Source of the DNA: a virus
Length of the DNA: 59,849 nucleotides
Direction: 5' to 3' (one strand)
IMG/VR virus record: IMGVR_UViG_3300045988_094266
In this document: one piece after another, positions 16,054 to 54,389 of the stretch
How the letters are laid out: each line of letters begins with the position of its first letter
How positions within the stretch are numbered: the first letter of the stretch is position 1
Notes under the pieces: model-generated
Told to the model about the DNA's origin: nothing
The model's database searches: none
What the model saw: the letters and a program-made list of their open reading frames with translations, nothing else
Program-made: the position numbers and the translations under genes

Positions 16054-17100
16054 ATGATAAAATTAGATTATACTATTGAGTCTCCAGAAGAACGGAAGGC
16101 GCTTGTCGAAAAAATAATCGCAGAAAATCCGAACCTTAGTTCGAGTTATTTAGAAATATTAGCAGATTATTTAGTTCTATGTATGGAAAAGCAAGAGAAG
16201 AAAGAAAAGAATATATTAACAGATAATAGAATGGCTACTGTTAATAAAAGAGAATGTTCTTTCGAAGGGCTTGCGTCATAGATGGAAAATGGCGAGGATG
16301 GCATTTATGGTTTAATGTCAGAAAATAAAAATGTTATATTTTAGCCAAAGATTTCTATTACACAGAAAGATTTAGATACTATACCATGTTTAAAATAGTT
16401 GAGAGAAACCATTAATGTCTGGGAGGGCGCTTTAAAACGCGCTGCTGGGACAAAATAGGCATATATGATGAAAAAAGCATTAATAGAGATGCGAAAAGAT
16501 TAGTATATCATTAAGCAAGCATATTAGAAACCTATTATACCATGTAAATTAACGAGATCCGTAAGAACTCATATTCCTCTTGATGATTAGAGTTATCTTA
16601 ATGGACAGGAGGTAGTAGTAAAGGGTATTTCGCTAATGGACGCCAATGTTGTTTCTACTATTTTATGCAATTATTCAAAATTAAAAGAAGATAGTTATGA
16701 TTAGTTTGAGGGAGATACATGGTATTTAATTCAATCATTTGAAGAAATATGTGATAAAGCTCTCAAAGACTTTCCAATCTATTTACGAATTGTTGAACTC
16801 AAAATTGATAAAAAGTAGAATAACGAAATATAGGAAATATTAAAAAATGAGTTTGGTAAAACATATAGTGTTGAATATATTTCTAGCCTATGGAGAAATA
16901 AGATTCCTAAACTCATTGCGGAAGAGGCTTTAGAAGATTTTTTACGTTGGTAGTATAAACAAAAAGGATACCCAATGAAAAAATGTTCTAAGTGTGGGCA
17001 ATTAAAGCCAGCCCATAATCAATTCTTTTCAAAGAATAAGACAAGTAAGGATAATTTGTATAGTATCTGTAAGCGCTGTCGCAATAAGAAAAGAGGTTGA
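16054..17100 (+). CDS. Hypothetical protein with a C-terminal zinc ribbon (TAG-containing)
   Basis: Continuous frame with about 11 in-frame TAGs, ending in TGA. C-terminal CSKCG...CKRC. Confidence 0.5.
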
Positions 17101-17106
17101 TTATAA

Positions 17107-18276
17107 ATGAGCCATTATTGTAAAAAATGTGGTAAAACTATGGATGATAAATAGTTTTATACGTCAAAAAATTTAGAGAAGTATCCTCCAGATGGAAAGA
17201 TGGATATTTGTAAAAAGTGTCTTACTATGCATGTAGATAACTGGGATCCAGAAACTTATAAATGGATTTTATAGGAGATTGACGTTCCATATATTAAAGA
17301 AGAATGGAATGGTTTATTGGAGAAATATGGAAAAGATCCAAAGAAAGTTACTGGATTAACTATTATTGGACGCTATTTATCTAAAATGAAATTAAAGCAA
17401 TGGAATAAATACACTTGGGCAGATACAGAAACGCTAGAGAAAGATTCCATTGATAAAAAAGTTCTTAATATGAAGGCTCAAGGATTTACAGAAGATGAAA
17501 TTCAAGAGCAGTTGTCTATTGATAGAACTCCTCCAAAACCAAAAGAATTAGAGGATGTTTAGGCCCCTGTAGGAACTCCAGAATATGAAGATCCAGAGGA
17601 AGATGATGATTTTGGTGATTAGCTAACCGAAGAAGATAAATTAGTATTACGTCTTAAATGGGGCCGCGGATATTCTTGGGAAGAAAGAGTAAGAATGGAG
17701 CAGCTTTACAATGATATGATGAGTTCTTATGATATTCAAGGAGCGGGTCATAAAGATACTCTTATTATGGTATGTAAAGCTAGTTTAAAAGCAAATTAGT
17801 TAATTGATGCTGGAGATATTGATGGCTTTTAGAAGATGCAAAAAGCCTATGATAGTTTAATGAAAAGCGGCAAATTTACGGCTGCTTAGAACAAAGGCGA
17901 ATCCGGTGAATTTGTAGATTCAATAGGTGAATTGGTAGCCCTTTGCGAAAGAGAGGGTTTTATTCCTAGATATTATACGGAAGGGCCCCAAGATAAAGTA
18001 GATAGAACTCTTTAGGATTTACAGCAATATACTCATACTCTAGTTACAGAGGAAATGAATCTTGGTAATATGATCGAAGCTTCGTTAAGAGAAATAGTTA
18101 AAGACAGAGAACGCGAGGCAAATATTGATGTTGAAGATAGCGATGAGGATGAAGATTTATTTAATTACGAGCATCCAGAATTAACAGAAGAAGATTATCA
18201 AGAGTATGAAGATATGAAAGAGTCGGAAAGAGACAAAGATGAGGAAATGTTAAATAATATATTAAAGGAGGTTTAA
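17107..18276 (+). CDS. Hypothetical protein with an N-terminal zinc ribbon and an acidic C-terminus (TAG-containing)
   Basis: The frame is open through several TAGs. N-terminal CKKCG...CKKC. It lies upstream of terL, so it may be a small terminase or a packaging accessory protein. This is a guess. Confidence 0.45.
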
Positions 18277-18279
18277 TAT

Positions 18280-20026
18280 ATGGCATTAAAAGATTTATTA
18301 AACCTTTCAAATAATAATAAGAAAATTGGCCTTTCCGAAGAAAGAGTTCGTGCGATAATTCCAGCAGCAAGATAGTATATAGCTTTTTGGAGAGAATATC
18401 CAGATATGTTTATTGACTTTTTGTAGACCGGCGGAGACGAGACAAGAAAAAAAGAAATTAATTTTTATTTTTATTAGAGAGTTTTCTTGCGGGCGGCTAT
18501 GAGATATAAGTATGTATACATGGTATTTCCTCGTGCCTATTCTAAGTCATTCTTATCAGTAACGGTGCTTATGTGTAGATGTATATTATATCCTGGATGT
18601 AAGCTATTCATTACTTCTGGTGGAAAAGAACAGGCAGCAGGTATAGCAAAAGAAAAAGTCTAGGAAATTTGTAATGCGATTCCCGCGCTTTAGAGAGAGA
18701 TTGATTGGCGAAGAGGTAAGACTTAGGAAGGAAAAGATTATTGTAAGTATATCTTCAAAAATGGATCTTATTTTGACAACGTTGCTGCTAGAGAATCTTC
18801 TCGTGGTAAGCGTAGACATGGAGGATTAATTGAGGAGTGCGTTGGTGTAGATGGGGATATTTTAAATGAAGTTTTAATCCCTCTAATGAACGTTGATAGA
18901 AGATGTTTAGATGGATCTGTTCATGAAGAAGAAACACTCAATAAATCCTAGATTTATGTTACTACTGCGGGGTGGAAAAACACATTCCCATATAATAAGT
19001 TGATTACTTTGCTAGTGCGCATGATACTAGAACCCGAAAAGAGTATTGTAATGGGCGGAACATGGAGAATTCCTGTGCTAGTGGGATTGCAATCCCGCAA
19101 CTTTGTATAGGAGTTAAAACAAGATGGTACATTTAATGAAGCATCATTTGATAGAGAGTATGAATCTAAATGGAGTGGCACCGTAGAAGATGCCTTCTTT
19201 AATGGTGATGCTTTTGATAGAAGTAGAAAATTGCTTTAGCCTGAATATGAATCTTCCGGACGCGCTTCTGCTCAAGCATATTATGTTCTTTCTGTTGATG
19301 TAGGAAGAAAGAAATGTCAATCTGTTGTATGTGTATTTAAAGTAACCCCTCAGTCTCAAGGACCAGCGATTAAGTCTCTTGTTAATATATATACTATGGA
19401 TGATGAACATTTTGAAGATTAGGCAATTAAGCTAAAAAGATTATATTATGATTATAAAGCTAAAATTATTGTTATTGACGGTAATGGACTTGGTGCTGGA
19501 TTGATGGATTACATGGTTAAACCACAAATAGTACCAGATACTAACGAGGTTTTTCCTGATTTTGGTGTAGCCAATGACGAAGATGGAGAATATAAACGGT
19601 TTAGAACAGATAATACAGAATATGATGCTATTTATGAAATTAAGGCAAATGCGCCAATTAATACCGAAGCCCATAGCAATGTTTAGACATAGTTGCGGGC
19701 TGGAAAGTTAAGATTTTTAATCGACGAAAAAGTTGCTAGAAATAAATTACTTGGTACCAAGAAAGGTCAAGCCATGAAACCAGAAGAGCGGGCAGAATAT
19801 TTAAAACCATTCACTTTAACTTCTATATTAAGAGAAGAAATGCTAAATTTGCGAGAAGAAAATGAGGGTGTAAATATTATTTTAAAACAGGCAAATAAGT
19901 CTGTGCCCAAAGATAAATTCTCTGCGCTTGAATATGGATTATATTATATTAAATAGGAAGAAGATAGTAAACGCAAGCGTAAAAGTAGAAGATTTTCAGA
20001 TTTTATGTTTATGAGTGAGGTGTAAG
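18280..20026 (+). CDS. terL: Terminase large subunit (TAG-containing)
   Basis: About 580 codons with an AAAGGAGG RBS, sitting immediately before the portal-sized gene. It has ATPase-like N-terminal and nuclease-like C-terminal regions (VIDGNGLG). The assignment rests on architecture and position. Confidence 0.55.
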
Positions 20027-20028
20027 AT

Positions 20029-20385
20029 ATGAAGGCCAGTCGTGGAGAAATTAAAATTCATGAGATATTAGAGCAAAATGGCATGAACTTTAAAGAAGAG
20101 TATGAGTTTCCTGGACTGAAAGCACCAAGTGGCAGGCCACTTCGTTTTGATTTTGCTGTTTTTGATGATGATGGAAATCTTGATTTTTTAATTGAGTATC
20201 AGGGTAAATAGCATTATTAGGCTGTTAGTAAATTTGGTGGAAATAGAGGATTATACCAATAGAAATATAATGATAATCAAAAGCGTAGATTTTGTGCATT
20301 AAAAGGTATTACCCTCATTGAAGTTCCCTATACGGAGGAAAATATCATCTCTTATGATTATTTAATGAGTAAAGCTGGATATTAA
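20029..20385 (+). CDS. Possible PD-(D/E)xK nuclease-like protein
   Basis: RFDFAVFDDDGNLDFLIEYQGK followed by TAG then HY. It sits immediately after terL, a common position for homing endonucleases. Confidence 0.35.
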
Positions 20386-20402
20386 CACCTGGAGGTGATA
20401 TT

Positions 20403-22028
20403 TTGTTAAAACGTCGATAGGAAGAAATAAGAGCTAAAGGTTTTGATCTACTAGATCGAGGTATTATTACTCGTTATCAATAGGAAGAAGATTTTTTGAA
20501 CTATGATACTGTTGATTATGCAAAAATGCGAGTTGGATTACGGTCTGTGGATGATGCGCTTATTAATCTAGGCACATATAAAAAGATAAATAGAAATTAT
20601 GGAGATAAAAAGTTTGTATTAAATGCTATTTATAAGCATGATTACAAGACTTTAAGAGAGATTTCTAATTACTTTTATGAAAGTAGCGGTATTTATTATA
20701 GATTATGTAAATATTTAGCCTTCTTATATAGATTTGATTGGTATATTACTCCATACACAGTAGACGCGTAGAAAGATAAAGATAAGCTATTGAAAGATTT
20801 TTCAAAGGTCTTGCTTTACCTTGATAAATCTAGTGTGAAGAGAATGCTTGGAAATATATCATTAGATATTATTAAAGAAGGAGCTTATTATGGTGTAATT
20901 GTTGATTTTGGAGATAGATTTGCAATTTAGAAATTACCAGCTTCATATTGCAGAAGTAGATATTTCTAGGGCCCTAATCCAATAGTAGAATTAAATCTTT
21001 AGTTTTTTGACACTTATTTTGCCAATCCGCAGTATAAAATCTAGATATTAAAGATTTTTCCACAGGACATTCAAAAGGCATATATTCTTTATAAACAGGG
21101 AAAATTAAAAGGGGATTATCCAGGTGATACTACTGTATGGTATCCACTAGATCCTAGTATTTCTGTAAAGTTTAGTCTAAATGATAATGAATTTCCTTTT
21201 CTAGCTGGGGTTATTCCTTCTATTATTGATTTGGATCAAGCGCAAGAATTAGATCGTCAAAAGACAATGCAACAATTATTAAAAATTATTATTTAGAAGT
21301 TGCCTCTTGATAAAAATGGAGATTTGATTTTTGATGTTGATGAAGCAAGGGATATTCATAATAATGCTGTAACTATGTTAAAACGAGCTATTGGTGTAGA
21401 TGTATTAACAACTTTTGCAGATATTGAAAAAATTGATACAAAAGATAATAATTCTAATACAACGACAGACGATTTGGAAAAAGTTGAACGTACAGTTTAT
21501 AATAACTCAGGTGTAACTCATAATTTGTTTAATGCAGATGGCAATATTGCAGTTACAAATTCTATTTTGACAGATGAATCTAGCGTAAGAGATATTCCTC
21601 TCATGTTTACAGATTTATTAAATCGAGTAGTAGAGAAATTTAATCGCAAAAATCATTATGAGTTTAGAGCGGAAATGTTAGAAACTACTTAGTTTAATTA
21701 TAAAGAGTTATCTAAATTATATAAAGAGCACGCTCAACTGGGTTATTCTAAGATGTTGCCACAGATTGCTTTAGGTCATTCTCAATCGAGTATATTAGCT
21801 ACATTAACATTTGAGAACGAAGTATTGAATTTAGCAGAAATTATGATTCCGCCTATGAGTTCTAATACCAGAAGCGGAAAAGATTTGGGTAATAATAATT
21901 AGTCATCTAAAACTAATTCTTAGAATAAGTAGACAAGTTCAACTAATACTAATGGAGCCGGCAGGCCCAAAAAAGAAGATGGCGAAAAGTCAGATAAGAC
22001 AATAGCTAATCAAGAAAGTTCGTCATAA
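20403..22028 (+). CDS. Putative portal protein (TAG-containing)
   Basis: About 540 codons directly downstream of terL, with a GGAGG-TTG start. The call is based on position, not on recognised motifs. Confidence 0.4.
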
Positions 22029-22042
22029 AGGAGGGATTGAAC

Positions 22043-23302
22043 TTGCATATTAGTGTTCCCATTTTAAATACGATGGAATATATTTAGAACACTTAGATTT
22101 CTCCTCTAGTTAGTAAAGGTGTCTGCAAAGTTTGCTACGTTGGGTAGCAACCTAACCGCAACCATACTGTAATTACCAAAGAAGTGGCCGCGGAAATGGG
22201 ACGTAAACTACCAGGAAGTCCTATTGTTGGATATTTTAATCATGAAATAAATGATTTTGAAGGCCACAACAGAGAAATTATTGTTCGAGATGGTAAGTTT
22301 GCTATTGTTGATACCACAAGACCATATGGATTTGTTCCTACAAATGCAAATGTATGGTTTTAGAAGTTCAATGATGAAGGCGTAGAAAGAGAATATCTTG
22401 TGACAGATGTATACATTTGGACTAGCATTTATCCAGAATCTAAAAGAATCCTGGAGAATAGCAATAACCATTCTATGGAATTGAATGAAGAAAATCAATC
22501 AGGATTTTGGACAAAAGATGATAAAACAAATGAAAGAATCTTTATCTACAATGAGGCATTGATTGAGAAATTATGTGTTCTCGGAGAAAATGTTGAGCCT
22601 TGTTTCGAGGGAGCTCAATTTAGTTCTCAATTTTCTTTAGAGAATAATCAAGAGTTTTAGAAACTTAAAACTATGATGTATTCTATGATGGATCAATTAA
22701 AAGAAACTTTAAATAAAGGAGGCTCTCAAGAACCTATGGAGAATGAGAAGAAAGTACCTACTGATTTCGAGAAAAATACTCCAAATCCCGAAGAGGGTAA
22801 GAAGAAAAAGACTTCTGAAAATCCTGCTCCAGCCCCAGAGGGAGAAAAAGAAAAGAAAAAGGATACTCCTCAAGGTAAGAAGTATAATCTTGAAGAAGTA
22901 ACAGAATATACAGAGTTACTTACAAAGTTTACCGATTTAGAGACTAAATATTCTGCTCTTGAGCAAGAAAAAACTAATCTAGATAATGAAGTTACAGCAC
23001 TAAGAGAATTTAAACTTAATGCTGAACGTCAAAGTAAACAACAAATGATTGATAGTTTCTATATGTTAAGTGATGAGGATAAGAAAGATGTCGCTGAGCA
23101 TATTGATACTTATTCTTTAGATGATATTGAAGCTAAATTATCTATTCTTTGTGTTAGAAATAAAGTAAATTTCAATCTTGAAGAAAAGCATAAAGAAGAA
23201 GATAATACCCCAAAGGGACTTTTTAATTTAAATAATCCAGAAACTGACAACGTTCCTGATTGGGTAAAAGCAATTCGTGAAACTGCTAAAAGCAGTATTT
23301 AA
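22043..23302 (+). CDS. Putative scaffolding protein (C-terminal coiled coil), possibly fused to an N-terminal protease-like domain
   Basis: AGGAGG-TTG start. The frame is continuous across TAG 22658-60. The C-terminal half is a K/E-rich coiled coil. Confidence 0.4.
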
Positions 23303-23315
23303 GGAGGATTAAAGA

Positions 23316-24005
23316 ATGGCTAAGAGTTCTAAAAGATTAGGTAATGCCACTTTTGTCCAGTATGGATATGGTCAAGTGGAGCCAAACCATCTTTCCGCTC
23401 CAAGAAATGGTCAAGTATATGCTCAGCTTCCCGCAGCTAGCGCTATTGAGATTCTTGAGAACGGTCAATTTGTAAAGTATGATTATGCAAAAGGCGTATG
23501 CGATTTTAGTACGGAAGCTACTTCTGGCGCCTGGATGATGGTATTTAATGAAGTAAAGATTTATAGAGATCGCGAAACTGATGCTGATTTTGCTATGATT
23601 AAGGATAATTATAATGCTCGTGTATATAGTCCAATTGGACAAACAGTTTCTACACTTGCTACAATAAGTGATTATACCGGAGAAGCTGTACGCGAAGGTA
23701 GTGATGTAGCATATAAGAAAAATATGGAGACATTTACTTATCCTGCATTGATGCCAGAAGGAACTAAAATGGTACCTCGCGTAATTAAGATTAGTATTGG
23801 TGATATTTGGACTACTAATACCATTAAGGCTAATGCCGGAGAGCTTGCAGTAGGCGATCGTCTAAAGATTGATACTGATGGATATTTAACTAAAGATACT
23901 GAAACTTCTGCTAAAGGTGGAGATTTAGATCCTATCTTTGCAGTAGTAAAAGTGTATACTATGCCAGATCTTCAACCTGGTGTAAAAGTACAGCGTGTAG
24001 GTTAA
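23316..24005 (+). CDS. Abundant head protein (scaffold or decoration candidate)
   Basis: TAG-free, with a strong AAGGAGG RBS, sitting directly upstream of the major capsid gene. Confidence 0.45.
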   Translation: MAKSSKRLGNATFVQYGYGQVEPNHLSAPRNGQVYAQLPAASAIEILENGQFVKYDYAKGVCDFSTEATSGAWMMVFNEVKIYRDRETDADFAMIKDNYNARVYSPIGQTVSTLATISDYTGEAVREGSDVAYKKNMETFTYPALMPEGTKMVPRVIKISIGDIWTTNTIKANAGELAVGDRLKIDTDGYLTKDTETSAKGGDLDPIFAVVKVYTMPDLQPGVKVQRVG

Positions 24006-24024
24006 TTGGAAGGAGTGAAGAAGA

Positions 24025-25077
24025 ATGTTAGATAAAGCTAATTTACTTAGTTTAATGAAAACTGTCGCTAATGCAAATCCTTCTGGTACCTATAGCTATC
24101 AAGGAGAGTCTTTTAGCTATGACGCTTTAAATACTACTTTGCGTAATGAGCTAAATGAATTTGTTGGCACAGATGAACTTTATAGAGAAAATAAAAATAC
24201 TCTATTCTCTTTAATTGAGCAGACTATGGACGAAGTTGTTCCTAATCGTTTACTCAATTCTTATGGCAATTTTGCTGAGATTAGAACTTTCGCACAAGGC
24301 GACAAGCCTGTATTTACTCGTAGAACTGGACTTACTCGCGCTAAGCAATTCATTACTCGTGTGGGGCTTGCTGGTGTGTATGAGACCTTTAAGCTTGGTT
24401 CTGAGAGCTTCGAAGTTGGAACAAGCGCCATTGGTGGAGCTGCTCGTATCGGATTTGAGGAGTTCCTTGATGGAAGAGTAAACTTTGCAGAACTTACTCA
24501 AATTGTAACAGAGGGTATGCAAGAGCTTATTTATAGAGAGATTGCTCAAGCTCTTATGGGTTCTATCAATCAGCTTCCCGCAGCAAACCGTTGTGCTGTT
24601 GCTGGTTTTGACGAACCAACTATGGATTATCTTGTAAATACTGCTACTGCTTATGGTCAGCCAACTATTTATTGCACTCGTGAGTTTGCAGTAAAAATGA
24701 TTCCAGATAATGATGCTTGGATTTCTGACAACATGAGAGATCAGTATTGGGGAACTGGTTATCTTGCAAATTACAAGGGAACTAGAGTGGTAATTCTACC
24801 CCAAACTCTTGAGGATGAGACTAACTCCAAAAAGATGATCGATCCAGGTTATGCTTGGATTATTCCTGGTGGAGCTGAGAGCCGTCCTGTAAAAGTTGCT
24901 TTTGAGGGTACTACCCACGTGCGCGAACGCGATGATAATGACGACTGGTCTCGTGATATTCAGGTTTACCGTAAGGTTGGTGTCGGTGTAATGATGGCGA
25001 ATAACATCTTCTCTTATGTTGATACTGAACTTCAAGGCGAGCTTGATAATACTAACCCAAATCCAAATAATGGTTAA
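24025..25077 (+). CDS. Major capsid protein (HK97 fold, SPP1 gp13-like)
   Basis: 350 codons, TAG-free, with a strong RBS. RVVILPQTLEDETNSKKMIDPGYAWIIPGGAESRP resembles the SPP1 gp13 family. Confidence 0.65.
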   Translation: MLDKANLLSLMKTVANANPSGTYSYQGESFSYDALNTTLRNELNEFVGTDELYRENKNTLFSLIEQTMDEVVPNRLLNSYGNFAEIRTFAQGDKPVFTRRTGLTRAKQFITRVGLAGVYETFKLGSESFEVGTSAIGGAARIGFEEFLDGRVNFAELTQIVTEGMQELIYREIAQALMGSINQLPAANRCAVAGFDEPTMDYLVNTATAYGQPTIYCTREFAVKMIPDNDAWISDNMRDQYWGTGYLANYKGTRVVILPQTLEDETNSKKMIDPGYAWIIPGGAESRPVKVAFEGTTHVRERDDNDDWSRDIQVYRKVGVGVMMANNIFSYVDTELQGELDNTNPNPNNG

Positions 25078-25083
25078 TTGACA

Positions 25084-25121
25084 GGGGATAGGGAAATATC
25101 CCTATCCCCTTTTATTTATTG
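25084..25121 (+). terminator. Intrinsic terminator after the capsid gene
   Basis: GGGGATAGGGA-aatat-TCCCTATCCCC followed by TTTTATTT. Confidence 0.65.
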
Positions 25122-25141
25122 AGAAAAAGGAGATAAAAATT

Positions 25142-25675
25142 ATGAAAAATAGTTGCACTGTTTATAATAAGAGCGCAGGTCGTGTTGTATATAGATTGCC
25201 TGAATTGGGCGTGCGCCGTATGTTTTATCCTGGAGAACACAAGGAACTTGAAGTATCTGAACTAGAAAAGCTAGTACAAACGCCTGGAGGCCGCAAATTA
25301 ATTTATAATTACTTACTTGTAGATGATAGAGAGATTGTTGAATATCTTATTAATGGTAGGGTTGAACCAGAGTATTGGATGAAAGAAGAAGAGATTGATT
25401 CTTGGATGAATACGTGTTCTTTAGATGAATTTAAGGATGCTCTTGATTTTGCTCCAGAAGGCACTAAAGATCTGATTAAATCCCATGCTATTTCTCTTCC
25501 TTTAAATGATATGTCTAAAAGAGATGCTTTGGAAAAACAATTAGGATTTAATGTTACTAAAGCATTAGAATTAACAGCAGATGATAAAAAGAATCCTAAG
25601 GAAGAGAAACCTGTAAGAAGAGTGTCAACTACAAGTGAGGATACTCCAAAACGCAGAGTAGCTATTTCTGATTGA
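25142..25675 (+). CDS. Hypothetical head-associated protein
   Basis: 177-codon TAG-free ORF. Confidence 0.5.
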   Translation: MKNSCTVYNKSAGRVVYRLPELGVRRMFYPGEHKELEVSELEKLVQTPGGRKLIYNYLLVDDREIVEYLINGRVEPEYWMKEEEIDSWMNTCSLDEFKDALDFAPEGTKDLIKSHAISLPLNDMSKRDALEKQLGFNVTKALELTADDKKNPKEEKPVRRVSTTSEDTPKRRVAISD

Positions 25676-25694
25676 TATAAGGGAGGTTATAGCC

Positions 25695-26237
25695 ATGGAT
25701 AATAAGAAATATCCAATTTAGGGCGATCCGACCCCCTTTGAAGAAATTTATGATAGATTTTTTGGCAAGATTACTGATGATATGTATATGGAATGGACAT
25801 AGGAAGATACTGAAAAAGATTTGTATAACATCCTAATGGATGCACTTCCTGGTTTTGAGTTCCCTCGTTTTCCATTATACAGTTTTACCAATATAGAAAA
25901 TAATGATGAAGAGACTGGAATAGCAACTATTATTCCAGCCTTTTCTGCACATTTAACGACAGAAGAAATAAATATTCTTGCTATTCTAATGTATAATACT
26001 TGGTTACAACGCCAGGTGGCTTCAATAGAATAGACGAGAATGAAATATTCTGGAACAGATTTTAAAATGACTTCCTAGGCCAATCATTTAGCCAAATTAA
26101 TAGAGTTGAAAAAGGAAGCAGAACGTCAAAGTCATCATATGCAGCGTCTCTATAAAAGAAGAAAACTAATTGATAATCAAGGCTCTTATAAATCAAACTG
26201 GTCAACATTAAGAGAGATGAGTGTTTTTGATGGATAA
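25695..26237 (+). CDS. Hypothetical protein (head-tail connector region, TAG-containing)
   Basis: GGGAGG RBS. The frame is open through 4 TAGs. Confidence 0.4.
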
Positions 26238-26538
26238 ATATGATATTAATTTCCCATTAGAAACAAAAGAGTAGGATTTAAAGAGATTGATTAATTAGTT
26301 ATGGAAGTTAATTCCAATGAGAGAGAATAATGAAGACTGGGTAAATCATTTGAATGTAATAACAGAAGAAATTAGTGGATTAGTTAAAATGTATAAAGAT
26401 AGAGTTGAGGGACTTATTTTATTGTCTAAACTGGAAGGGTTATCTTCAAATGTCTGCAATGATTTTATGATTTATCGAAAAACAGTCTTTAGATGTATTG
26501 ATTTGTTGGCGTAGGTGATTAGAGATGACGAATCTTGA
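26230..26538 (+). CDS. Hypothetical protein (TAG-containing)
   Basis: Its start overlaps the previous stop (ATGGATAA). Confidence 0.35.
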
Positions 26539-27517: not shown

Positions 27518-27532
27518 GGAGAGTGAATTGAA

Positions 27533-28069
27533 ATGAAAAAAAATACTTATGAGTATCCTAAATCTAGTTTGTTAGGTATGTAGAAAGATGCTTCTCTGAT
27601 TATGGAAAGAATACTTTCTAATTAGAATGTTTTGAAATTATTAACTTATAATACTAGAGATTGGAAAAGTAAACCGACCGTTACAGGAGATATGATAAAG
27701 GAAATGATTGATACTAAGTAGATTTCTGCTGTTCCTAAGATAAAGGTTGATAGACCAGAAAAATCTTATTTAAGATTGATTTATGGCACTATGGTTAGAA
27801 ATTCTACAAATCCTGAATATAGAGATAATACATTTGGTATTGATATTATTTGTCATTATGATAATTGGGATTTGGGAGATTATGATTTACGACCTTATCG
27901 AATTGCGGGAGAGATAGATTCAATGCTTGATGGAACTCATTTAACGGGTATAGGAGAGCTAGAATTTGTATCAGCTACGCCATATATATATGATGAAGAA
28001 TTTGCTGGTTTGTCTCTAACATATCTTGCTATTCGCGGAAATGAAGATAAGGTAAATCCGCTTGCTTGA
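27533..28069 (+). CDS. Hypothetical neck/tail-completion protein (TAG-containing)
   Basis: AAGGAG RBS. Contains 3 TAGs. Confidence 0.4.
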
Positions 28070-28085
28070 TTATAGATTAGCTTTA

Positions 28086-28811: not shown

Positions 28812-28825
28812 GGAGGAATTAGCTC

Positions 28826-41157: not shown

Positions 41158-41180
41158 AGGGGAGATTTCCTCCCCTATTA
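41154..41180 (+). other. Perfect 11-bp hairpin TAATAGGGGAG-atttc-CTCCCCTATTA overlapping the tape measure stop codon
   Basis: Read directly. There is no U-tract. Confidence 0.5.
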
Positions 41181-41207
41181 TCCCTATGAGAAAAAGGAGG
41201 ATAAATA

Positions 41208-44200: not shown

Positions 44201-45122
44201 AACGAAAACAGGATCTAATGGTTGGACTATTGAAACCAATAGACTATATAGCGGCTCTGGCTCAACGAGAGTTGAATTAAATAGCCAATCTCCAACCAAT
44301 ACTTCTACTCCTACTAATAATAATGATTTTGCTATTTGGGCAGGAAGTGCTACAGCATCAAGTGCTAAATTTTCTGTTTCTAAAGGCGGATTAATTACTG
44401 CTAAATAGGGAAATATTGGAGGTTGGATTCTTTCTTCTAATAAGTTAACTAGTGATAATTATAGAACTGGAATAGCGAGCTCTGGTACTTATCGTTTTTG
44501 GGCAGGAGCTAGTTCTAGCAGTACGGCAGATAGACCAGTTTTCTCTGGATCTTCTTACTTTTATGTTACTAGCTCTGGAGAAATGTAGTGTAAAAATGCA
44601 ACGATTAATGGTTCAATTTATGCAGATGACGGTGAGATTGGTGGCTGGATTATCAGTTCAAATAGAATTTCTGGAGGAAGAACTACACTATATTCAAATG
44701 GTAGAATTGTGTGTGATGATTTTGAATCAGACAATGTAGATATTAGCGGAGATATTAATGCAACTACTTTGACTTGTGATAATGGTGAGATTGGTGGCTG
44801 GATTATCAGTGAAAGCGGATTGGAAAATGGTGCCACAAGACTATATAATGGTTTAGTTTAGACGAATCAAGTAGATATATTTTTAGATAATCGTTGGAGA
44901 AATAAGCTGGGAACTTTAGGATATGTTGAAGGAGAAGATGATTATGGTCCTACTGAGAATATTGGTATTCTTACTGAACGAGGAGATCATAGTATTATTT
45001 TAAAATCTTCTAGAAACATAGCTCTACGAACAGAAGGTGGCGGAATATGGATAACTGGAGGAAGTCTAAATGTAAATGTTTCTAAAGAAAATTAGCACGG
45101 TATCTATGCCCAATTTGCGTAA
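41208..45122 (+). CDS. Large tail/baseplate protein with C-terminal repeated (I/L)GGWI motifs (TAG-containing)
   Basis: AAAGGAGG RBS. About 1300 codons with track ORFs in the same frame. Repeats include GNIGGWILSSNKL, DGEIGGWIISSNRI and NGEIGGWIISESGL. Confidence 0.45.
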
Positions 45123-45136
45123 GGAGTTGATAGTAT

Positions 45137-45877
45137 ATGGGTTCTGTAACTTTACATTCTCCTTCTTACTCTAGTGTTGGATAGAGATATGCTTCAATAA
45201 GTTGTACTGCGGTAGGATGGGTGTATCCAAGTGATTCCGGAACGACCACTACTGGAGATAGTAAAAATGGTTCTAGAACTACTATTTCTTATAGCAATAC
45301 AGTATGGAGTTGGAGCTTTAGCGATGGAGGCAGCTCTAGTTCAAAAGAACCAACTCATAATTTTACTGGCTTAACCGCGGGAAGGGCAAACACAGTTAGA
45401 GGTACATTAAGTGCTAGATGTACGAAAACTACTACTGTAACTCGATGGTCTACCCATAGAGAAGAAGTAGGAAAAGACGAAAATGGGAATCCAATATATG
45501 AAGATGTAACAACAACTACTGGGCCAACTACGTCTAGGACAACAGTTAGTTTAGGATCTGCATCTGATAGTGTAACTGTATATACGCAACCAACTAGCTT
45601 TTCTTTTGGATGCAGTCCTGGAGATTATATAGCAGATTATGCTACAGCCAGCAAATGGAATTAGTTAGCTGACTAGGTTGGTAAATATAAAAGTTGGAGA
45701 AACTAGTCAAATCAGTATTCTTCATACAATAATTTAAAAGTTTCTCGTGGTGATTGGATAACTGCGAGTGTTTATAATTCTATGGCATCTGCTTGCGGGA
45801 CTTCAAGAGTTACCGCAGATAAAACTTTGATTAGTGCAGCTTTATTTGAAGCTTTAGCAGATGCGGTTTCACCATAA
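45137..45877 (+). CDS. Hypothetical tail protein (TAG-containing)
   Basis: AAGGAG RBS. Thr/Ser-rich. Confidence 0.4.
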
Positions 45878-45897
45878 GAGAAAAAGGAGTCTTAATT

Positions 45898-46269
45898 ATG
45901 AAAATGTTAAACAAGGATATTTTGGAAGCAGTTGAGAATTTAAATTCTACAATACAAGATTGCTCACTTCTTCCCGCGAGTGTATCATATGCAGTAATAA
46001 GAAATTTTAAAATTCTTTCTCCTATTGCTGAGGATATTTATAACGAACGAAAAAAGATTATTGAAAGATATGGAGAAAAAGTTGATGATATAACCTATTA
46101 GATTTCAGAGGAGAAAAGGGAAGCGGCTAATCAAGAATTAAATGCTTTATTGGCGGTTAATACTAGCGTTCCATTAGCGACTTTTTCTATTGATATTTTA
46201 TAGGGGTATGATATTCCTTTAAAAGTTATGAATACTCTATATTTTATGGTGGAGGCTGACGAGGAGTAA
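45898..46269 (+). CDS. Hypothetical protein (TAG-containing)
   Basis: The 67-codon track ORF extends through 2 TAGs to a TAA. Confidence 0.35.
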
Positions 46270-46281
46270 AACTCGTCAGCC
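46254..46281 (+). other. Hairpin GGCTGACGAG/CTCGTCAGCC overlapping the stop codon
   Basis: Read directly. Confidence 0.4.
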
Positions 46282-46354
46282 TCTTGGCCAATTATATTTA
46301 TAAAAAATATAAGATTTTTTAAATATTTTAGATGAGAAAAAGGAGGCGTTAATT

Positions 46355-49141
46355 ATGCCAATTAGTATTTATCCGCCTACTTTGTAGAGTACATAGCCAG
46401 CATTTCTTTCTAGCGTGAACGTATATTAGATAAATTTTACGCTATAGCCAATTACGTCTTTTAATGACATAGGTCATGTACAAGTGCGGCTAGTTCGTTA
46501 GTCTAATAATAAAAGTATTGTAAATACAGACCAATATCCAGATGGAACTATTTATAAAGCTCCTTCTGCGATAGGGTCTTTAGGAAATCAATATTTTGTA
46601 TCAATTAATAGAAGCGAATTAGCCGAATCTTGGTAGCCAGGCTATTTATACAAAGTACAAATGCGTTTTGGTATAAATCCAATGTATACTTCGTTATCAG
46701 AATTTGCCACTTGGAAACAATAGCAGATAGATGCGGGAGCCTTTTCTGAATGGTCTACTGTAATGATAATCAAGGCTATAGATACACCAATTATTAAAAT
46801 AGAAAACGATGAAGCTAAACGAGAAGATGTTATATCTACTGAAAGAATAGAGGCAACTCTTACTCCTTTGTTTATAGGAAGCTTTAATATTAGCTCTGCT
46901 AGTAATGAATTATTGGATAGATATAAATTTGATTTGTATGAAGGAGCCTCTAAAGATCCTAATTATTTACTTGAAACATCTGGATGGTTATAGCACAATG
47001 GTTCTATTAATAATACCGATACTTATAGATTTAAAACCGTGTTAACCAATAATAAAAGCTATACAGTAGTCTACTCTATTATTACTATTAATGAATATGA
47101 AGGAGAATCAGAGCCTTATAATTTTTCAGTTAATAGGACCTATTTGGGAGATTTAGAGGGAGTATCTATTAGAGTTGAAGATAATGATGTATATTGTCGA
47201 GAAAATGGTTGTATAAAAATATTTTGTACCGCTAAAAATGGACTTAGTGGTAGTTATGTAATAACAAGAAGTTCTGAAAAAAGTAATTATTAGATATGGG
47301 AAGATTTAAAATATCTTAAATTTTCTAATCAAGTATTAAATGATTCAGTTATTCATGTTGATTTTGCTATTGAAAGTGGTATAAGATATAAATATGCCAT
47401 ACAATAGGAAAATTCAGCAGGGTTGCGGACTTCTTAGGTATATGATACAAGTAACCAAGGTAGAAGTGTTGATTTCCAATATAGCTATATTTATAGGGAT
47501 AATATATAGTTAAAGTTATCTCTTAATTAGACATTATCCAGCTTTAAACATACTACTTTAAGAAGTAAACAAGATACCTTAGGAAGTAAATATCCTCATT
47601 TGGTTTAGAATGGTAAGGCTTATTATGCAGAGTTTCCAATTTCTGGATTAATAAGTTTTTAGATGGATGAAGATTAGACATTTTTCTCTTTAAAAGATGA
47701 TGGACTTTATTACAATAATGAATTAGTAATTCCCAAAGACAAATTTATTAAAAACAATGTAACCAGAGGAAAATGTCAAGAGAAGTAGGAAACTTATTCT
47801 GAAGTTTCTACAGATGAAAATAAATTATCTATCTCAACTAGTTTAACAAATGATAATATTTTTATTGAAAGAATATTTAGAGAAAAAGTGGAAGAATTTT
47901 TAAATGATTTTAATTATAAGCTCTTTAAATCTTCTACCGAAGGAAATATAATTATAGGCTTGCTGAATGTATCTTTGACTCCGAATAATACGGTCGGCCG
48001 CATGATTTACTCCTTTTCTGCTACTGCGTATGAAGTTTTAGAGAATACCATAGAAAATTTAAATGAAGTTAATATAATAAATATTGGTAAATTTGAAAGT
48101 TTGGCTAGCGAAGATAGAATAAATTCTTTCGGATAGTTAAGTGGAATTTATGGTAGAAATATAGATTTATATGCGAAGATAAGAGAGCAGGAAGAGGTTA
48201 GTATAGGCGGAGGATATAAACTTAATTTAATTCAAGTTACAGATATTTAGATTGAGCAATATCCAAAAATAGATTTGACTGCACGATTACTAGAATTAGA
48301 AGCTCTTAAATCTGAAGCCGCGGGAGATGACGAGGATACTTCTGAATATGATAGACAGATTTAGGAATGTAAAGATTTGATTCTCGCTCTTGATGGCCCT
48401 GAATCCGCAACTATCGAAATTAATGTTAATGGTTCAAGAATTTTAGTTGCTCCAAATAGAGTTTATCATTTAAATGAAAATGTAAATTCTTTATCTTTGT
48501 CCGCGTCTAGCGTTCCTATTGTTGTAAACTATGTTTGCTAGTTGAATTAGGTTGAGGACGTTTCTGTTGGAGTCGTTTCTGCTATTGATGCTTCTCGCAT
48601 TTGGGGATAGATTTCTGGAATTTTTACTGGTACAGATGGAGTTTTAAAATTCTATAATTACGATTATAGAAACAGTGAAACTTATCGTATATTTAGTAAT
48701 GTTCCACCAAATATGGAAAAGTTTTTAGTCAAGGATAAATAGGGAGATACTATTGTTGATAATACAACCTTTAATCTATATAAAACCATTAATATTTATG
48801 AGATAATAAAAGAAGAAACATAGAAACAAGTTGAGCTTATATATAATACTCATTTCGAGTTAAATGATGATGGATAGTTGACAGATGGCGAGATTTATTA
48901 TACTTTTAGTGATATTGTTTTACTTGATATTGAGGCGGATGAAGGAACTACCCTTTTAATTAGTTCTAGTCCAGATGGAAGTAATCCGTCTATTATAAAG
49001 ATTGGTCCAACTGGAAGGTATACTCTTAATCCATTAGATAATATGGTTAAATATATAGCTTTAGAAAGTGCTTAGTTTTGTGTAATAAATTATAAATGTT
49101 TAACAAATCAAATGCGCATGAAGGTGGAATAGTATTATGTT
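46355..49141 (+). CDS. Large baseplate/tail structural protein (TAG-containing, about 928 codons)
   Basis: AAAGGAGG RBS. Track ORFs 46763, 47039, 47888 and 48878 all lie in the same frame. Confidence 0.4.
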
Positions 49142-51041
49142 TGATTATTTAAATGATATGGATTTCCTTGTAGCTCTTGATAAATTAAATATTAAAACTC
49201 ATTACGCAAAAATTATTTTACTTTCTTTTGATGAAAAACCTATTAGAGAAATATAGGGTAACATAACTGCTGGTAGTTTAAGTGTTAATGGATCGTCCTC
49301 TGTTCGTAGAACAATTAACCTAACTATGTTAGCTAATGAGAATAATAGCGATATTGAAAATATAGATAATGAGATTTCAATAAATAAGAAGGTTAAAGTT
49401 TTTGTTGGATATAATAATCCCTTAAAATCTTATGCAAATTATGGTGACATAATTTGGTTCCCTTGTGGATTGTTTGTTTTATCTAACGCATCGGTAGCAA
49501 GATCCACTTCTGGATGGACAATCTCTATAAGTGGAAAAGATAAAATGTGTTTACTTGATGGAACCGCAGGAGGGACATTTCCAGGCTCTATAACCTTTCA
49601 TGAAAGTTATATATAGAAAAAAGATGGAGATATAGAAATTGTATATCCAACTATCTTTCAAATTATATATGAAGCAGTCAACCATTGGGGCGGAGAGGCT
49701 ATAACAAATATTATTATTACTGACATAGAAGAAACTTGTAAGATGTTGGTTAAATATATAGGAGATAAACCCATATATTTTAGCAATAATTATGAAAGTA
49801 TGGACTTTTCTCCAAGCGCTGATTTTCCTCATATGATAAGTTATGGATAGGATGCTGGATATAGAGAAACTGAATTTACTTATCCGGGAGAATTAATTTT
49901 AGATGCTGGAGATACTGTAACTACTCTATTAGATAAAATAGTTGAAGTTCTTGGAAATTTTGAGTATTTTTATGATATAGATGGTCGCTTTATCTTTTAG
50001 GAGATAAAGAATTATCTTAATACTGGAAGTCCTTTAACAGAGTTATCTCCAGAAAATTATGTAAAGAGCTATAATAATGCTAAGTTTTTATACTCTTTAA
50101 CCGATCTTGATACTACTACAGCCATAACCCGCAGTCCAAAGTTTGATAATATAAAAAATGATTTTTATGTTTGGGGGAAGAGAACCACTACATCTGGAAT
50201 AGAAGTTGATATTAGGTATCATCTTGCTATTGATACTAAACCAATAATTGACTTAGCAGGATATTATATGTGGGCTGTGAGTGATAAAGAGACGGGATTA
50301 ATTATAAGATATGATTTTAATAATATATCTTCTGATTATTCAATATCAGGATATGAAGTAGAATTAGTTGGATCTCCGTGCGATGAGTGGAGAGAGGAAT
50401 TATATCGTAGAGCATTAAACGCACAAGTAACAAATAGTGTATATGATAATTATTATGACTCTGAATTAATCGCCGAATGGCGCAATTTATATAATCCACT
50501 AAATGAGAAATGGGATGAATATAATCATTGGAATCCAGATGTATTTAATAATCCAGGAAATCTAAACTATTGGCTAGATTTTATAGATATCGGTTCAGAA
50601 ATTGGAAAATATTCAATAAATGAGATAGGTAGAAGGACTAAAATAATTAATAGTTCTGATATAACTTCCGTATATAATATAGAAGCTCCTGATATTATAT
50701 TTATTGAAGGATTAGACCAGGATTTGATAGCAGAATATAGAGGAATTGGTTAGAGATTTTTTGTTCTTACTTCTGAGTATTATAATTTATTTTCAATAAG
50801 CTCCACAAATGCGAGTTGTTTTGATAAAATTAGAGAAATGTTGTATTAGAATTTAAATTATAATACAACTATATCCATTACTTGTTTACCAAAATATTAT
50901 ATGGAACCAAACAATATTCTTTATGTTGAAGATAAAGACAGTGGACTTAGTGGAAATTATTAGATAACCCAATTCACTTTACCTCTTTCATATAATGGAA
51001 CTATGAGTATTATAGCCACGGAAGTATTAACAAGAGTATAA
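49137..51041 (+). CDS. Tail/baseplate structural protein (TAG-containing, about 634 codons)
   Basis: Its start overlaps the previous stop. Track ORFs 49326 and 50268 are in frame with it. Confidence 0.4.
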
Positions 51042-51057
51042 GGAGGAGTAGGAGATA

Positions 51058-51648
51058 ATGCCAACTGTTGGTCAAATATATTATAATGTAATAGATAACA
51101 ACAGTGGTAGTTATGTTTCTAGTGGGTAGAATATATTCAGTGATATTGTTGTCCAAGTGGGGGCCTCTCAATTTAATAAAGTTGGAGTATAGGCTCCTGC
51201 TGGGACTAAGATAGTTATGAATGAATCAAAAACTATTATGGTTGGTAGAACTGGAATATATGAACTAGATGATGACATAGCTATTACTAATATGTATTTT
51301 ATTAGACCTAGAAAGTATGAGAAAGACGAAGAAGCATCTCAGTAGGCTATTGAACAAGGAACTGCGGGAATGCAAGCCGCAGATAAAAAAAGGAGTGAAG
51401 ATTTGGAGAGATTTTATAAAGAAAATCCAGATATGCCAGATCAAGATACCGATCCAGAAGGATATAAGGCTTATTGGGACGCATATAATAATATTCAGAC
51501 TGCTTATATAGAGGCTTATTAGACAGCATTAAGCTTATATAATCAGGGGGTAAATGGCATTTATGTACTACCAAATCCTGATAATGTTGATGCTCCAGAA
51601 AATTATTAGGATTTATATAATGTCATTATTGACTTTATTTATGTATAA
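51058..51648 (+). CDS. Hypothetical protein (TAG-containing)
   Basis: GGAGGAG RBS. Contains 5 TAGs. Confidence 0.35.
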
Positions 51649-51662
51649 GGAGGTGTCAAACT

Positions 51663-53573
51663 ATGGAGAGTTTCTATGGAGGACCTAAAGGTATAGATTT
51701 TGAAATTAAGCAAATCTTTACTAGTAAATATTAGATGGATAGAGATTTAACAAAGGGTTGGACATCTTCTATTTTCCCTGGAGATTTCGTTATTGTATCA
51801 TATGGTTTGCCAAGTGATGCAAATTATGATATTTATAAGAATGAAGATTTATAGAATTATGGTAAAAGTTATAACTCTACCCTTTGGAAAAAAGTTTTTA
51901 ATGATAAAGATGGAAGTGGGTCTGCGGGCGGCCTAAGCTATGAGATGCAGGCTTCCATGACAGGAAATACACCAAGAATTAGCTTACATGATACAGAAGT
52001 TCTTGATGCCGATGAAGATCCAAATGTAGTTTGGGATAATACAGATTTAGATAGATTGTGGCTAACTTTTTAGTTACCTTAGAGTCAAAACATTCAATTA
52101 GGCGAAACAACTGTTCTAGATTGCAATAAAAATCCTAGTGCGGAATTAGATACAACAGATATAAATAATCCAAGTTTAAAATTATCCTTGCCGCAATCGC
52201 AGGTTATTGAGACGGCATTAGTTGAATTATTAAATGTTGGGGAAGAGCCTACAGTATCCTTAGAAACGTCTGGTTCTTATTCTATAAATAGACCGGCAAT
52301 TAAATTCCAATTACCTGTATCTCAATCATTATAGGAAGGAACTACAACAGTTCTTGATTCTAATGAAACACCATATTTTGAGATAAATTTTGATGATATA
52401 AATAAGCCAGTTATTAATTTCTTTTTACCTCAAAGCTAGGTAATGGGAAATCCAGAGACTATTATTGTGGGTCCAGAGGAAAACCCATCAGTTTAGATAG
52501 ATAATACTAATATTAATTCTCCGGTATTAAAATTTAGTTTACCAGAATCTATTAAGTTTTATTATGGTGAACTATTAGGGGAAAGAACTGCTGGGACTTA
52601 TGAAGAAACGAATGAAGCTTTTGCAGATTATAATATTGGTGATTATTATATTAATGCACCGACCGGTTTTATTTACAAGGTAACAAAGAAGTAGGGTACA
52701 ACTTGCACTTTCCAATATGTTGCTTGTATTTAGTCTCCATTACCTGAAATAGAAGTAACAAAATTAGATCCTTATACAAATGGTGGTAGCGAGTATGAAC
52801 CAACTGCACCTACTGTAGTAAGAGAATTTACTAATACGGAAGAAACCGCTTGGAAACTTGTCTTTGGGCTGCCATCCGCGGTTAAATATGGAGTTTCTTT
52901 TGATTTTATAGGAATTGATGAAGAGGGATCTATCTCTAGTAAGATTATTTCTTCTGATACAGTAAATCTTGATTTCTAGATTCCAAGAGGATCTAAATTA
53001 TTTGCTGGATTAGCTGTTTCTGATACATCTTTAAATGTTACTGTTGATGGAGCTAAAACAGGAGATTTGTATTTAAATACTGATACAGGAGATATTTATT
53101 CATTAAGCTCTAATGGAACATGGGTTAAGAATAAAGGAAACTTAAAAGGTCCTGTTGGAGAAGCTCTTAAAATAGTTAAAAGTTACACTATTAACGAAAC
53201 TGAAACAATTAAGGATTCTTTATAGAATGGCGTAAATTACATCGAAGAAAATTACGATGGAGAAATCAGCGCAGAGGATATTTTCTCTATTACTTGGGTT
53301 GAATATGAGACTAATTAGGAAACTTCTTATTGGTATTATAAAGCAGCCGATGGAGTATGGGGAAGAGTTCAACTAACCGGAGGTATTGCTAACCTTATTG
53401 ATAATGATTATAATAATGAAGATGGTGGAGAGGTAACAAATAAAACTTATAGCGTTCATTATATCAACACTTTAATCGGTGGAGCTATTACAAATAAAGA
53501 TAGATAGACATATTCTGCCGAATAGATAGAAGAGTTGTTATCTTGGGGAAGTTTTAGTGATTTAATACCTTAA
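51663..53573 (+). CDS. Tail fiber/baseplate protein with four tandem ~35-aa 'LPxSQ' repeats (TAG-containing)
   Basis: GGAGG RBS. Repeat units include NNPSLKLSLPQSQV, NRPAIKFQLPVSQS, NKPVINFFLPQSQV and NSPVLKFSLPESIK. Confidence 0.4.
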
Positions 53574-53606
53574 TTTATATTTAGAGAGTATAAAGGAGGG
53601 CCTAAA

Positions 53607-54389
53607 ATGGCTTTATTTAAGATTTTTCGAGGACCAGAAGATAATTTGAATAGTGTACCTCTTCATGAAGGATACGCTTATTTCACAGAAGATAAAGGAA
53701 ATCTCTTTATTGATATTAGTAATGAAGAAGGTGGACGTTTGCAGGTAAATGCTTATGCTGCTCAAGTTCTAAAGAATGATATTACTGAGATTGATATTGA
53801 TGATATTTTTCTTAAAAATATGACTGCCACTGTAGCTCAGGGCGGAACTGGACATAATAGTCTAACTGTAAATGCTTTATTAATTGGTAATGGAACTAAT
53901 GCGGTAAAGATGGTTGAAATTGCGGCTGGTTAGGTTGTTATCGGAAATAGCGAGAATGGTGTAACAGGATTGCAAGGAACTGGCGCTTTATTTGCCGCTA
54001 CAGCTGGCGCTCCGCAATTTGGAACGCTTCCAATTTCAGTTGGTGGAACCGGGGCAATTAATGCAGCAGGGGCGAGAACTAATTTAGATGTGTATAGCAA
54101 ATTGGAAACAGATAACTAGATTAGTGGAAGTACTACGGCAGCTTATCCAGCAACTCTTTCTGCATCAGGTTGGGTATTAAATGAAGATATGTATACATAT
54201 ACTTATTCCAATACTTCTTTAACTTGCGGAAAAGCAGGTAATGTGCCACCTATTATTAGTTATACTTCTAATCTTGAAGAGTATAGTAAAATTGATCACG
54301 CTGATGCATCAGTTGGGGTTGGAATTACCTTTTATACAAAAGAAAAACCAACAAATGATATTGCTATTATTATCATTGATGTAAAATAA
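53607..54389 (+). CDS. Tail fiber protein (1-2 in-frame TAGs)
   Basis: The N-terminus KIFRGPEDNLNSVPLHEGYAYFTEDKGNLFIDI is a common phage fiber N-terminal motif. Downstream it is Gly-rich. Confidence 0.5.

Follow-up and report, generated by a model that had tools for sequence, protein, structure and literature searches.

A 59,849-nt stretch of viral DNA (IMG/VR record IMGVR_UViG_3300045988_094266), hereafter the window, covers about 40% of a genome of about 145 kb and encodes on its plus strand (15985..54389) a late module for virion structure and DNA packaging in which the amber codon TAG is a sense codon and never a terminator, to an extent far beyond chance. Taken as a whole, the evidence makes it highly probable that the DNA belongs to an uncultured siphovirus of gut Clostridia that has an SPbeta-like structural module and uses genetic code 15, with TAG encoding glutamine and only TAA and TGA terminating translation. 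It is also very likely that TAG is read as Gln through a phage tRNA with the anticodon CUA, hereafter tRNA(CUA).

A first-pass annotation, made from the letters of the window alone, had claimed that the long genes between 16054 and 54389 are interrupted in frame by TAG only, every 20-60 codons, and that all of them end in TAA or TGA. These claims hold. When stops are limited to TAA and TGA, the plus strand resolves into 23 abutting open reading frames (ORFs) of 180 to 2913 codons, the longest being 32415..41156, with no in-frame TAA or TGA. From stop to stop these frames contain 279 in-frame TAG among 12399 codons; if counting begins at each gene's first ATG, the tally is 271 among 12098, about one per 45. 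Three small plus-strand genes in apparent gaps (20029..20385, 26230..26538 and 45898..46269) each contain TAG as well. Gene ends are TAA in 39 cases, TGA in five and TAG in none (44 of the 45 tabulated models, one mis-set model being left out). By greedy non-overlapping tiling of plus strand 15985..54389, ORFs of at least 100 aa under translation table 11 cover 28.0%, whereas ORFs with TAG as a sense codon cover 99.3%, so that table 11 is neither equal nor better. Reassignment of TGA or of TAA was rejected, coverage then being 26.6% or 34.4%, with no gain comparable to that from TAG; in a mononucleotide-shuffled sequence with TAG as sense, coverage is 4% and the longest ORF has 203 codons. Single PHROG profile matches run through TAG sites, as with phrog_2739 over residues 34-499 of the portal protein and phrog_5767 in the product of the first late-operon gene. 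The positions of TAG along genes have only a weak 5' bias (Kolmogorov-Smirnov p=0.027), and the base following TAG (+4) is distributed like the background of all codons, modestly unlike that following CAA and CAG (chi-square p=5e-4).

The residue inserted at TAG can be read from several comparisons, and the earlier suggestion of Gln is borne out by them. TAG accounts for 271 of the 562 Gln-type codons of the 23 late genes (48%), and counting it brings the Gln content of these genes to 4.6% of codons, versus 2.4% without it. Two TAG codons of terL, which encodes the large terminase, align with Gln residues (motifs FYQR and FEDQA) that are invariant in four standard-code terminases, those of phages Sundance, PJN02, phiL47 and Kirov, and in the terminase genes of recoded relatives TAG is exchanged mainly with CAA. 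Across 24189 aligned codon columns in which the window was compared with five relatives, the partners of a window TAG were TAG (29%), CAA (25%) and CAG (7%), together about 60%, and GAA or GAG (9%); those of CAA were CAA (40%), CAG (14%), TAG (10%) and GAA (4.5%). The partner profile of TAG is nearly the same as that of CAA, so that TAG acts as one of the synonymous codons for Gln. Of 322 TGG columns only 2 paired with TAG, and of 1029 TAT columns only 6. The TerL cluster has 598 member sequences. The 120 best database homologues of TerL listed are full length and have Q at the TAG positions; this is not independent evidence, because the DNA of these homologues itself has TAG and the gene caller wrote Q. 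Insertion of Gln at TAG has been demonstrated by proteomics for crAss-like phages only (PMC9523058).

A tRNA that could decode TAG was located in relatives by walking rightward over IMG/VR contigs whose overlaps are 98%, 89% and 85% identical to the window at the DNA level. The first 155 related loci (2.7 Mb) contained no tRNA other than two Arg tRNAs in an unrelated contig, but about 57 kb to the right of the window end the relatives have a region of 16-20 tRNAs that includes Trp(CCA), Gln(UUG), Gln(CUG), transfer-messenger RNA (tmRNA) and one tRNA(CUA). The CUA-anticodon tRNA anticipated by the first-pass annotation thus exists in relatives outside the window, and within the window there is none. 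It is present in L157, L158, L159, L166, L176, L177 and L180, two of which are 85-89% identical to the window where they overlap it. All relatives with a readable tRNA region have it, those at 85-89% DNA identity as well as others as distant as the gut phage phAss-1. A leftward walk (L014-L017) does not overlap the tRNA loci, and a search with a 109-aa protein encoded nearby led only to L166, which is more distant. It is a class I tRNA of 75 nt with an encoded CCA, discriminator G73 and canonical D and T loops, reaches 60 bits with the tRNA model of Rfam, is unpaired at position 1-72 (U.U, or C.U in L157), and is 97-99% conserved among four sub-lineages. One phAss-1 tRNA-Sup-CTA is 85% identical to it, and Babkin et al. 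(PMC10607447) typed the phAss-1 tRNA-SUP-CTA gene as Gln with tRNAscan-SE. An identity as tRNA-Pyl, which would have a small D loop, a 6-bp anticodon stem and no GG or T-psi-C consensus, was rejected on the basis of the canonical cloverleaf, in which the D loop has GG, the anticodon stem is 5 bp long and the T loop reads TTCGAAT; pyrrolysine is also excluded by the alignment of TAG with Gln, and the "Pyl" label of ARAGORN reflects the anticodon alone. No theta/HDV-like ribozyme or other Rfam family was found beside tRNA(CUA).

Several points weigh against this account of decoding and of the host. Searches of the whole window for tRNAs and Rfam families returned nothing, and the contigs that are 98% identical to the window end short of the tRNA region, so that tRNA(CUA) in the window strain is extrapolated from relatives. 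The isotype of tRNA(CUA) is ambiguous: its identity to the tRNA-Trp and to the tRNA-Gln(UUG) of its own genome is 64% in each case, and its anticodon arm and T arm resemble those of the phage tRNA-Trp. With an acceptor stem like that of tRNA-Gln(UUG), it looks like a Gln/Trp mosaic. Release factor 2 (RF2) and glutaminyl-tRNA synthetase (GlnRS), which the first-pass annotation had listed beside the tRNA, were not detected by tblastn with the Escherichia coli proteins in the window and 0.74 Mb of related loci, a search of limited sensitivity that left a few to about 20 kb of the genome uncovered. Many Bacillota lack GlnRS, and the hosts that would have to charge a CUA tRNA with Gln may be among them. 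The evidence for the host is a hint only, 148-kb contigs with 90-91% capsid identity being binned in metagenome-assembled genomes named Oscillospiraceae and Eubacterium. Finally, the timing of early and late expression and the competition with release factor 1, described below, are steps that we infer.

That TAG is read as a different residue or a mixture, for example as Trp, or as Glu supplied by a non-discriminating glutamyl-tRNA synthetase with failed amidation, is improbable. Such decoding would agree with the equal identity of tRNA(CUA) to tRNA-Trp and tRNA-Gln, with an anticodon arm (GGUCU-CUA-AAACC) that differs from the phage tRNA-Trp arm essentially at position 35 only, with GAA and GAG as the next commonest partners of TAG, and with the negative GlnRS search in the window and related loci. 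However, an A36-A37-A38 loop is expected in any tRNA that reads codons starting with U, the acceptor stem (positions 2-6, 67-72) and G73 of tRNA(CUA) equal those of the phage tRNA-Gln(UUG), TAG almost never replaces TGG, its spectrum of partners agrees with that of CAA, also in the share of Glu, and it occupies positions of invariant Gln in standard-code homologues. Still less credible is a phage without a working suppressor, in a host whose own suppressor or alternative code makes TAG a sense codon; we know of no bacterium in which TAG encodes Gln. The tRNA-less window would suit such a phage, as would the recoded phages without a detectable suppressor tRNA in published surveys (PMC7886860; PMC10607447), whereas the conservation of tRNA(CUA) in every relative with a readable tRNA region and the avoidance of TAG by early genes both argue for a phage-encoded suppressor. 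That the TAG codons are real stops in a decaying, pseudogenised prophage or an artefact of assembly or sequencing, as the shattered table-11 calls might imply, can be dismissed, as the first-pass annotation had done for pseudogenisation, since over 12.4 thousand codons only one of three stop codons interrupts the frames, hundreds of independent assemblies have these genes intact with differing TAG positions, and TAG exchanges with Gln codons in a synonymous pattern.

For the decoding of TAG as Gln by a phage tRNA(CUA) we propose a sequence of events that follows published models of other recoded phages (10.1101/2021.08.26.457843; PMC7886860). Genes of the early type, those for replication included, are nearly free of TAG, which fits a standard-code host, and would be readable by the standard machinery of the host, which would read TAG as stop while tRNA(CUA) is expressed early, after the model of the same two sources. 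Host enzymes would charge tRNA(CUA) with Gln, and as it accumulates it may out-compete release factor 1 at UAG, whereupon the late operon, lysins and retroelement, with about one TAG per 45 codons, would become translatable. AT-biased mutation of CAG to TAG, once neutral, may then have driven TAG to nearly half of the Gln codons in this lineage. Early genes would have no reason to avoid TAG unless it terminated translation when infection begins. Such avoidance is seen in a minus-strand block (1426..14928) of 16 gene models, all of them TAG-free (model 11890..12342 was taken from stop to stop), in which genes end in TAA or TGA. Among genes to the right of the window in relatives, few or no TAG were found in those for DNA polymerase III (PolIII) alpha (1 TAG in 1305 aa), NrdD (0 in 757), GyrA (0 in 795), GyrB (0 in 630), primase (0 in 371) and ligase (0 in 364), and many in those for a RecJ-like protein (13 in 585), RuvC (9 in 160) and a lysin (11 in 484). 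The tRNA(CUA) gene of relatives lies among TAG-free genes.

Within the late operon five genes are free of TAG, namely the four that the first-pass annotation had named among those expected to be most highly expressed (23316..24005, the capsid gene, the tube gene and 31785..32324) and the 177-aa gene that follows the capsid gene. With the TAG share of the remaining late genes (52%) as the expectation, the probability of finding no TAG is 8e-5 for the capsid gene (13 Gln codons), 1.6e-4 for the tube gene (12) and 3e-3 for 23316..24005 (8), but 0.23 for both 25142..25675 and 31785..32324, where the absence of TAG is not significant because each has just two Gln codons. TAG avoidance is thus significant for the first three genes only. 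These three are also TAG-free in relatives at about 70% DNA identity (the capsid gene in L005 and L007), where they use CAG almost exclusively while their neighbours prefer CAA. Relative L001, 97.6% identical, has one TAG within its capsid gene; the avoidance is therefore strong and not absolute. Less efficient decoding by suppression, with a cost in yield, is probably the reason for it. Similarly, phAss-1 is listed with TAG in its TerL and tape measure genes and not in its capsid or PolIII genes (PMC10607447).

The share of TAG among Gln codons differs between lineages: over the same 13-15 genes (window 16030..30217) it is about 14% for L007, about 22% for L005 and, for the lineage of the window, about 39%, and the TerL genes of the three contain 4, 8 and 13 TAG, respectively. 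This looks like a progressive take-over of Gln codons by TAG. L005, which is about 70% identical to the window at the DNA level, sits on an ENA scaffold of 328,633 bp, more than twice the size of the phage genome, and may be an integrated prophage or a mis-join.

It is possible, although rather unlikely, that amber suppression has been kept limiting and thereby partitions the late proteome at the level of translation. The genes for bulk proteins (capsid, tube and the product of 23316..24005) are kept TAG-free and, in relatives, shifted to CAG, whereas in the sigma-annotated gene, terminase, tape measure, lysins and retroelement TAG makes up roughly half of the Gln codons. In these low-copy or dangerous genes the first TAG usually falls early, inside the initial 5-45 codons. 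If so, the output of low-copy genes, and possibly late transcription too, would be tied to the level of tRNA(CUA), and several phage factors (the peptidyl-tRNA hydrolase PTH2, tmRNA, a Thg1-like protein, polynucleotide kinase and RNA ligase) might shield the suppressor tRNA and handle ribosomes that have stalled or read through a stop.

Table 1. Predicted features of the window, and tRNA(CUA) loci in related contigs. Coordinates are window positions unless a contig is named.
Feature	Coordinates	Strand	In-frame TAG	Remarks
MazE/SpoVT-like gene	7830..8291	-		
PTH2 peptidyl-tRNA hydrolase	13068..13505	-	0	early gene
Microbial-type poly(ADP-ribose) glycohydrolase (PARG)	13490..14257	-		
FolD-like methylenetetrahydrofolate dehydrogenase/cyclohydrolase	14835..15620	-	4	
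ORF	15607..15954	-	7	
First late-operon gene	16030..17100	+	11	PHROG 5767 "sigma factor" match; C-terminal zinc-ribbon-like tail
YonG-like protein (YonG_N)	17107..18276	+	8	small-terminase position in related phages
Large terminase (terL), YonF homologue	18280..20025	+	13	by homology; 2 TAG at invariant Gln
118-aa gene after terL	20029..20385	+	3	
Portal protein	20526..22028	+	10	PHROG 2739, one match
YonD-like head protein	22073..23302	+	5	
229-aa head gene	23316..24005	+	0	candidate scaffold or decoration protein; directly upstream of capsid gene
Major capsid protein, YonB family	24025..25077	+	0	52% identical to phAss-1 capsid
177-aa gene	25142..25675	+	0	
Five head-tail connector-type genes	25695..26237, 26230..26538, 26525..27517, 27533..28069 (YomW), 28086..28811 (YomV)	+	25 in total	
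Tail tube protein, YomU_Tube	28826..30217	+	0	
480-aa gene	30277..31719	+	19	TAG is 73% of Gln-type codons
179-aa gene	31785..32324	+	0	putative tail assembly chaperone by position, upstream of tape measure gene
Tape measure protein	32415..41156	+	96-98	2913 codons; 2851 from first ATG at 32601
Distal tail, baseplate or fibre gene	41208..45122	+	27	by position only
Distal tail, baseplate or fibre gene	45137..45877	+	4	by position only
Distal tail, baseplate or fibre gene	45898..46269	+	2	by position only
Distal tail, baseplate or fibre gene	46355..49144	+	28	by position only
Distal tail, baseplate or fibre gene	49137..51041	+	7	by position only
Distal tail, baseplate or fibre gene	51058..51648	+	5	by position only
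Distal tail, baseplate or fibre gene	51663..53573	+	14	by position only
Distal tail, baseplate or fibre gene	53607..54389	+	2	by position only
Membrane protein gene	54432..54890	-	1	
220-aa gene	54868..55530	-	3	
Retroelement reverse transcriptase	55530..56747	-	3	Pfam RVT_1; YMDD motif
Retroelement template repeat	~57054..57156	-		
Retroelement small helper-type gene	57187..57681	-	1	
Retroelement target gene	57763..59607	-	7-9	Big_3 and DUF6273
Retroelement variable repeat	~57777..57879	-		at 3' end of target gene
tRNA(CUA)	L157 2441..2515			
tRNA(CUA)	L158 2636..2710			
tRNA(CUA)	L159 2428..2503			

The gene identities proposed in the first-pass annotation (Table 1) are supported for terL, the portal, the tape measure, the capsid and the tube, and the "chaperone" label of 31785..32324 is not established. 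TerL is homologous to annotated terminases from SPbeta-like phages, from Brevibacillus phage Sundance, Bacillus phages PJN02 and Kirov, Enterococcus phage EF5 and Lactococcus phage phiL47. Bacillus phages, too, have annotated major capsid proteins that match the capsid protein here. The product of the 8.7-kb gene matches Pfam PhageMin_Tail over residues 130-337, and the gene is therefore taken to be the tape measure gene. YonB, YomU and the other Yon/Yom assignments are precomputed Pfam hits on near-identical contigs in public assemblies; YonG_N, YonD_N, YonB, YomW, YomV and YomU_Tube together define what is, on these family assignments, an SPbeta-like structural module. A Pfam search with the library copy used here gave no match for the capsid, the tube, the product of 31785..32324, or the baseplate-region products of 41208..45122 and 46355..49144. 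Nor did one match the sigma-like product of 16030..17100, for which "sigma factor" is the PHROG annotation only. The highest TAG shares among the plus-strand genes are those of 27533..28069 (all three Gln-type codons) and 30277..31719.

The interval 16054..54389 given in the first-pass annotation is too narrow, and the recoding extends to minus-strand genes on both sides. To the left, the recoded stretch 14835..15954 adjoins the divergent junction with the late operon, and homologous gene calls are found in L001. The FolD-like gene in this stretch is the sole annotated gene of the early region with several TAG. To the right, the minus-strand block 54432..59607 contains 15 TAG. The part at 55530..59607 is, by its gene content and repeats, a complete diversity-generating retroelement, all three genes of which have in-frame TAG; nearly all mismatches between its template and variable repeats are at template adenines.

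Contigs that encode an exact window protein are 116-149 kb long. To the right of the window, the relatives also encode NrdG, dUTPase, DnaB (2 TAG), ThyX and a PhoH-like protein. The tmRNA of relatives (L177 1068..1383, L180 1722..2037, L166 449..763) has the tag DNDYFENYLAA; like PTH2 it acts on stalled or aborted translation, and both may matter where UAG is suppressed. About 47 kb to the right of the window, and about 8 kb from the tRNA region, a cluster in L156 (~2459..8695) that resembles a kit for tRNA repair or modification was identified by sequence motifs by eye, and comprises an RNA ligase-like protein, a Thg1-like tRNA-His guanylyltransferase homologue, a polynucleotide kinase and several metallophosphatases. 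Beside tRNA(CUA), at L166 12053..16387 and L157 3516..7876, are genes for a DUF2828/DUF7788 protein and an 809-aa vault-like protein with Pfam hits to the major vault protein shoulder and Vault_3; the pair is essentially TAG-free and unusual for a phage. An RNase H-like gene of L107 (4670..5153) appears to be split over overlapping frames (4670..4990 and 4830..5153), possibly by a frameshift or an assembly error.

Amber-to-Gln recoding of gut phages is real but already well described, including in the phAss-1 group (PMC10607447). It has also been described for late genes with phage suppressor tRNAs by Ivanova et al. (2014), insofar as that work is reported in PMC7886860, and in the Borges preprint (10.1101/2021.08.26.457843) and by Peters et al. 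(PMC9523058). What the window and its relatives add is modest: conserved TAG-free genes for bulk virion proteins, a gradient of TAG among lineages, and a suppressor that looks like a Gln/Trp mosaic. Table 11 yields fragments and misannotation of the 38-kb module, whereas code 15 yields a complete virion and packaging module; the gain in annotation is small because code-15 versions of these genes are already stored in public protein collections. The phage is common in public data, to judge by the size of its TerL cluster, and it extends amber reassignment to phages with an SPbeta-like module, for which gut Clostridia are probable hosts. It would be a good system in which to ask whether the efficiency of suppression limits expression, and how a CUA tRNA is loaded with Gln in hosts that perhaps lack GlnRS.

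Amber suppressors of E. coli include supE, a tRNA-Gln with anticodon CUA, and Su7, a tRNA-Trp with anticodon CUA that inserts Gln. The tRNA(CUA) of the relatives is similarly of class I, has the anticodon CUA and G73 and is predicted to insert Gln at UAG, and its Gln-like acceptor stem and Trp-like anticodon arm recall both. In contrast to supE and Su7, which are leaky mutant alleles, it is a conserved phage gene, unpaired at 1-72, that would decode about 2% of late codons.

Code-15 crAss-like phages and the recoded Borges clades (Lak, Agate, Garnet, Topaz and others) likewise have TAG in late structural and lysis genes and variably in replication genes; a phage suppressor tRNA, a standard-code host and a gating of late and lytic expression, proposed for them, would be further points in common (10.1101/2021.08.26.457843; PMC7886860). 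The window phage belongs to an unrelated virion lineage, with a terminase of the SPbeta/YonF type and a YonB capsid, and its host phylum would be Bacillota rather than Bacteroidota. Some Lak and Agate phages encode RF2, which was not found here in the window and 0.74 Mb of related loci.

Among named phages the nearest to the window phage is phAss-1 (OQ749652, "Caudoviricetes code 15 clade"), whose capsid protein is the best match from a complete genome among GenBank phages. The phAss-1 group consists of large gut siphoviruses of 130-140 kb related to Enterococcus phage EF1 and SPbeta-like phages (PMC10607447). Homologous capsid and tape measure proteins and, in relatives, PolIII alpha, together with relatives' contigs of 143-149 kb, identify the window phage by homology as a divergent relative of this group. 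Inclusion in the genus Phassvirus (about 70% or more nucleotide similarity) was rejected: when 24 kb of the window were compared with GenBank phages by megablast, nothing matched, and the capsids are 52% identical. Shared features are TAG in the terL, portal, tape measure and fibre genes, a tape measure of about 3000 aa, a genome of about 136-149 kb and Clostridia as predicted hosts (PMC10607447), as well as, in relatives of the window phage, many tRNAs including tRNA-Sup-CTA, and the lack of a phage aminoacyl-tRNA synthetase, consistent with the negative GlnRS search here. The gene order around the tRNAs is different, and phAss-1 and two congeners have two or three tRNA-Sup-CTA whereas the relatives of the window phage have one tRNA(CUA). 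With the SPbeta-like and Enterococcus EF1-like siphoviruses the window phage has in common YonG, YonF (TerL), YonD, YonB, YomX/W/V, a YomU tube and a similar class of genome size, but those phages use the standard code and have CAA or CAG in the terminase gene where the window phage has TAG.

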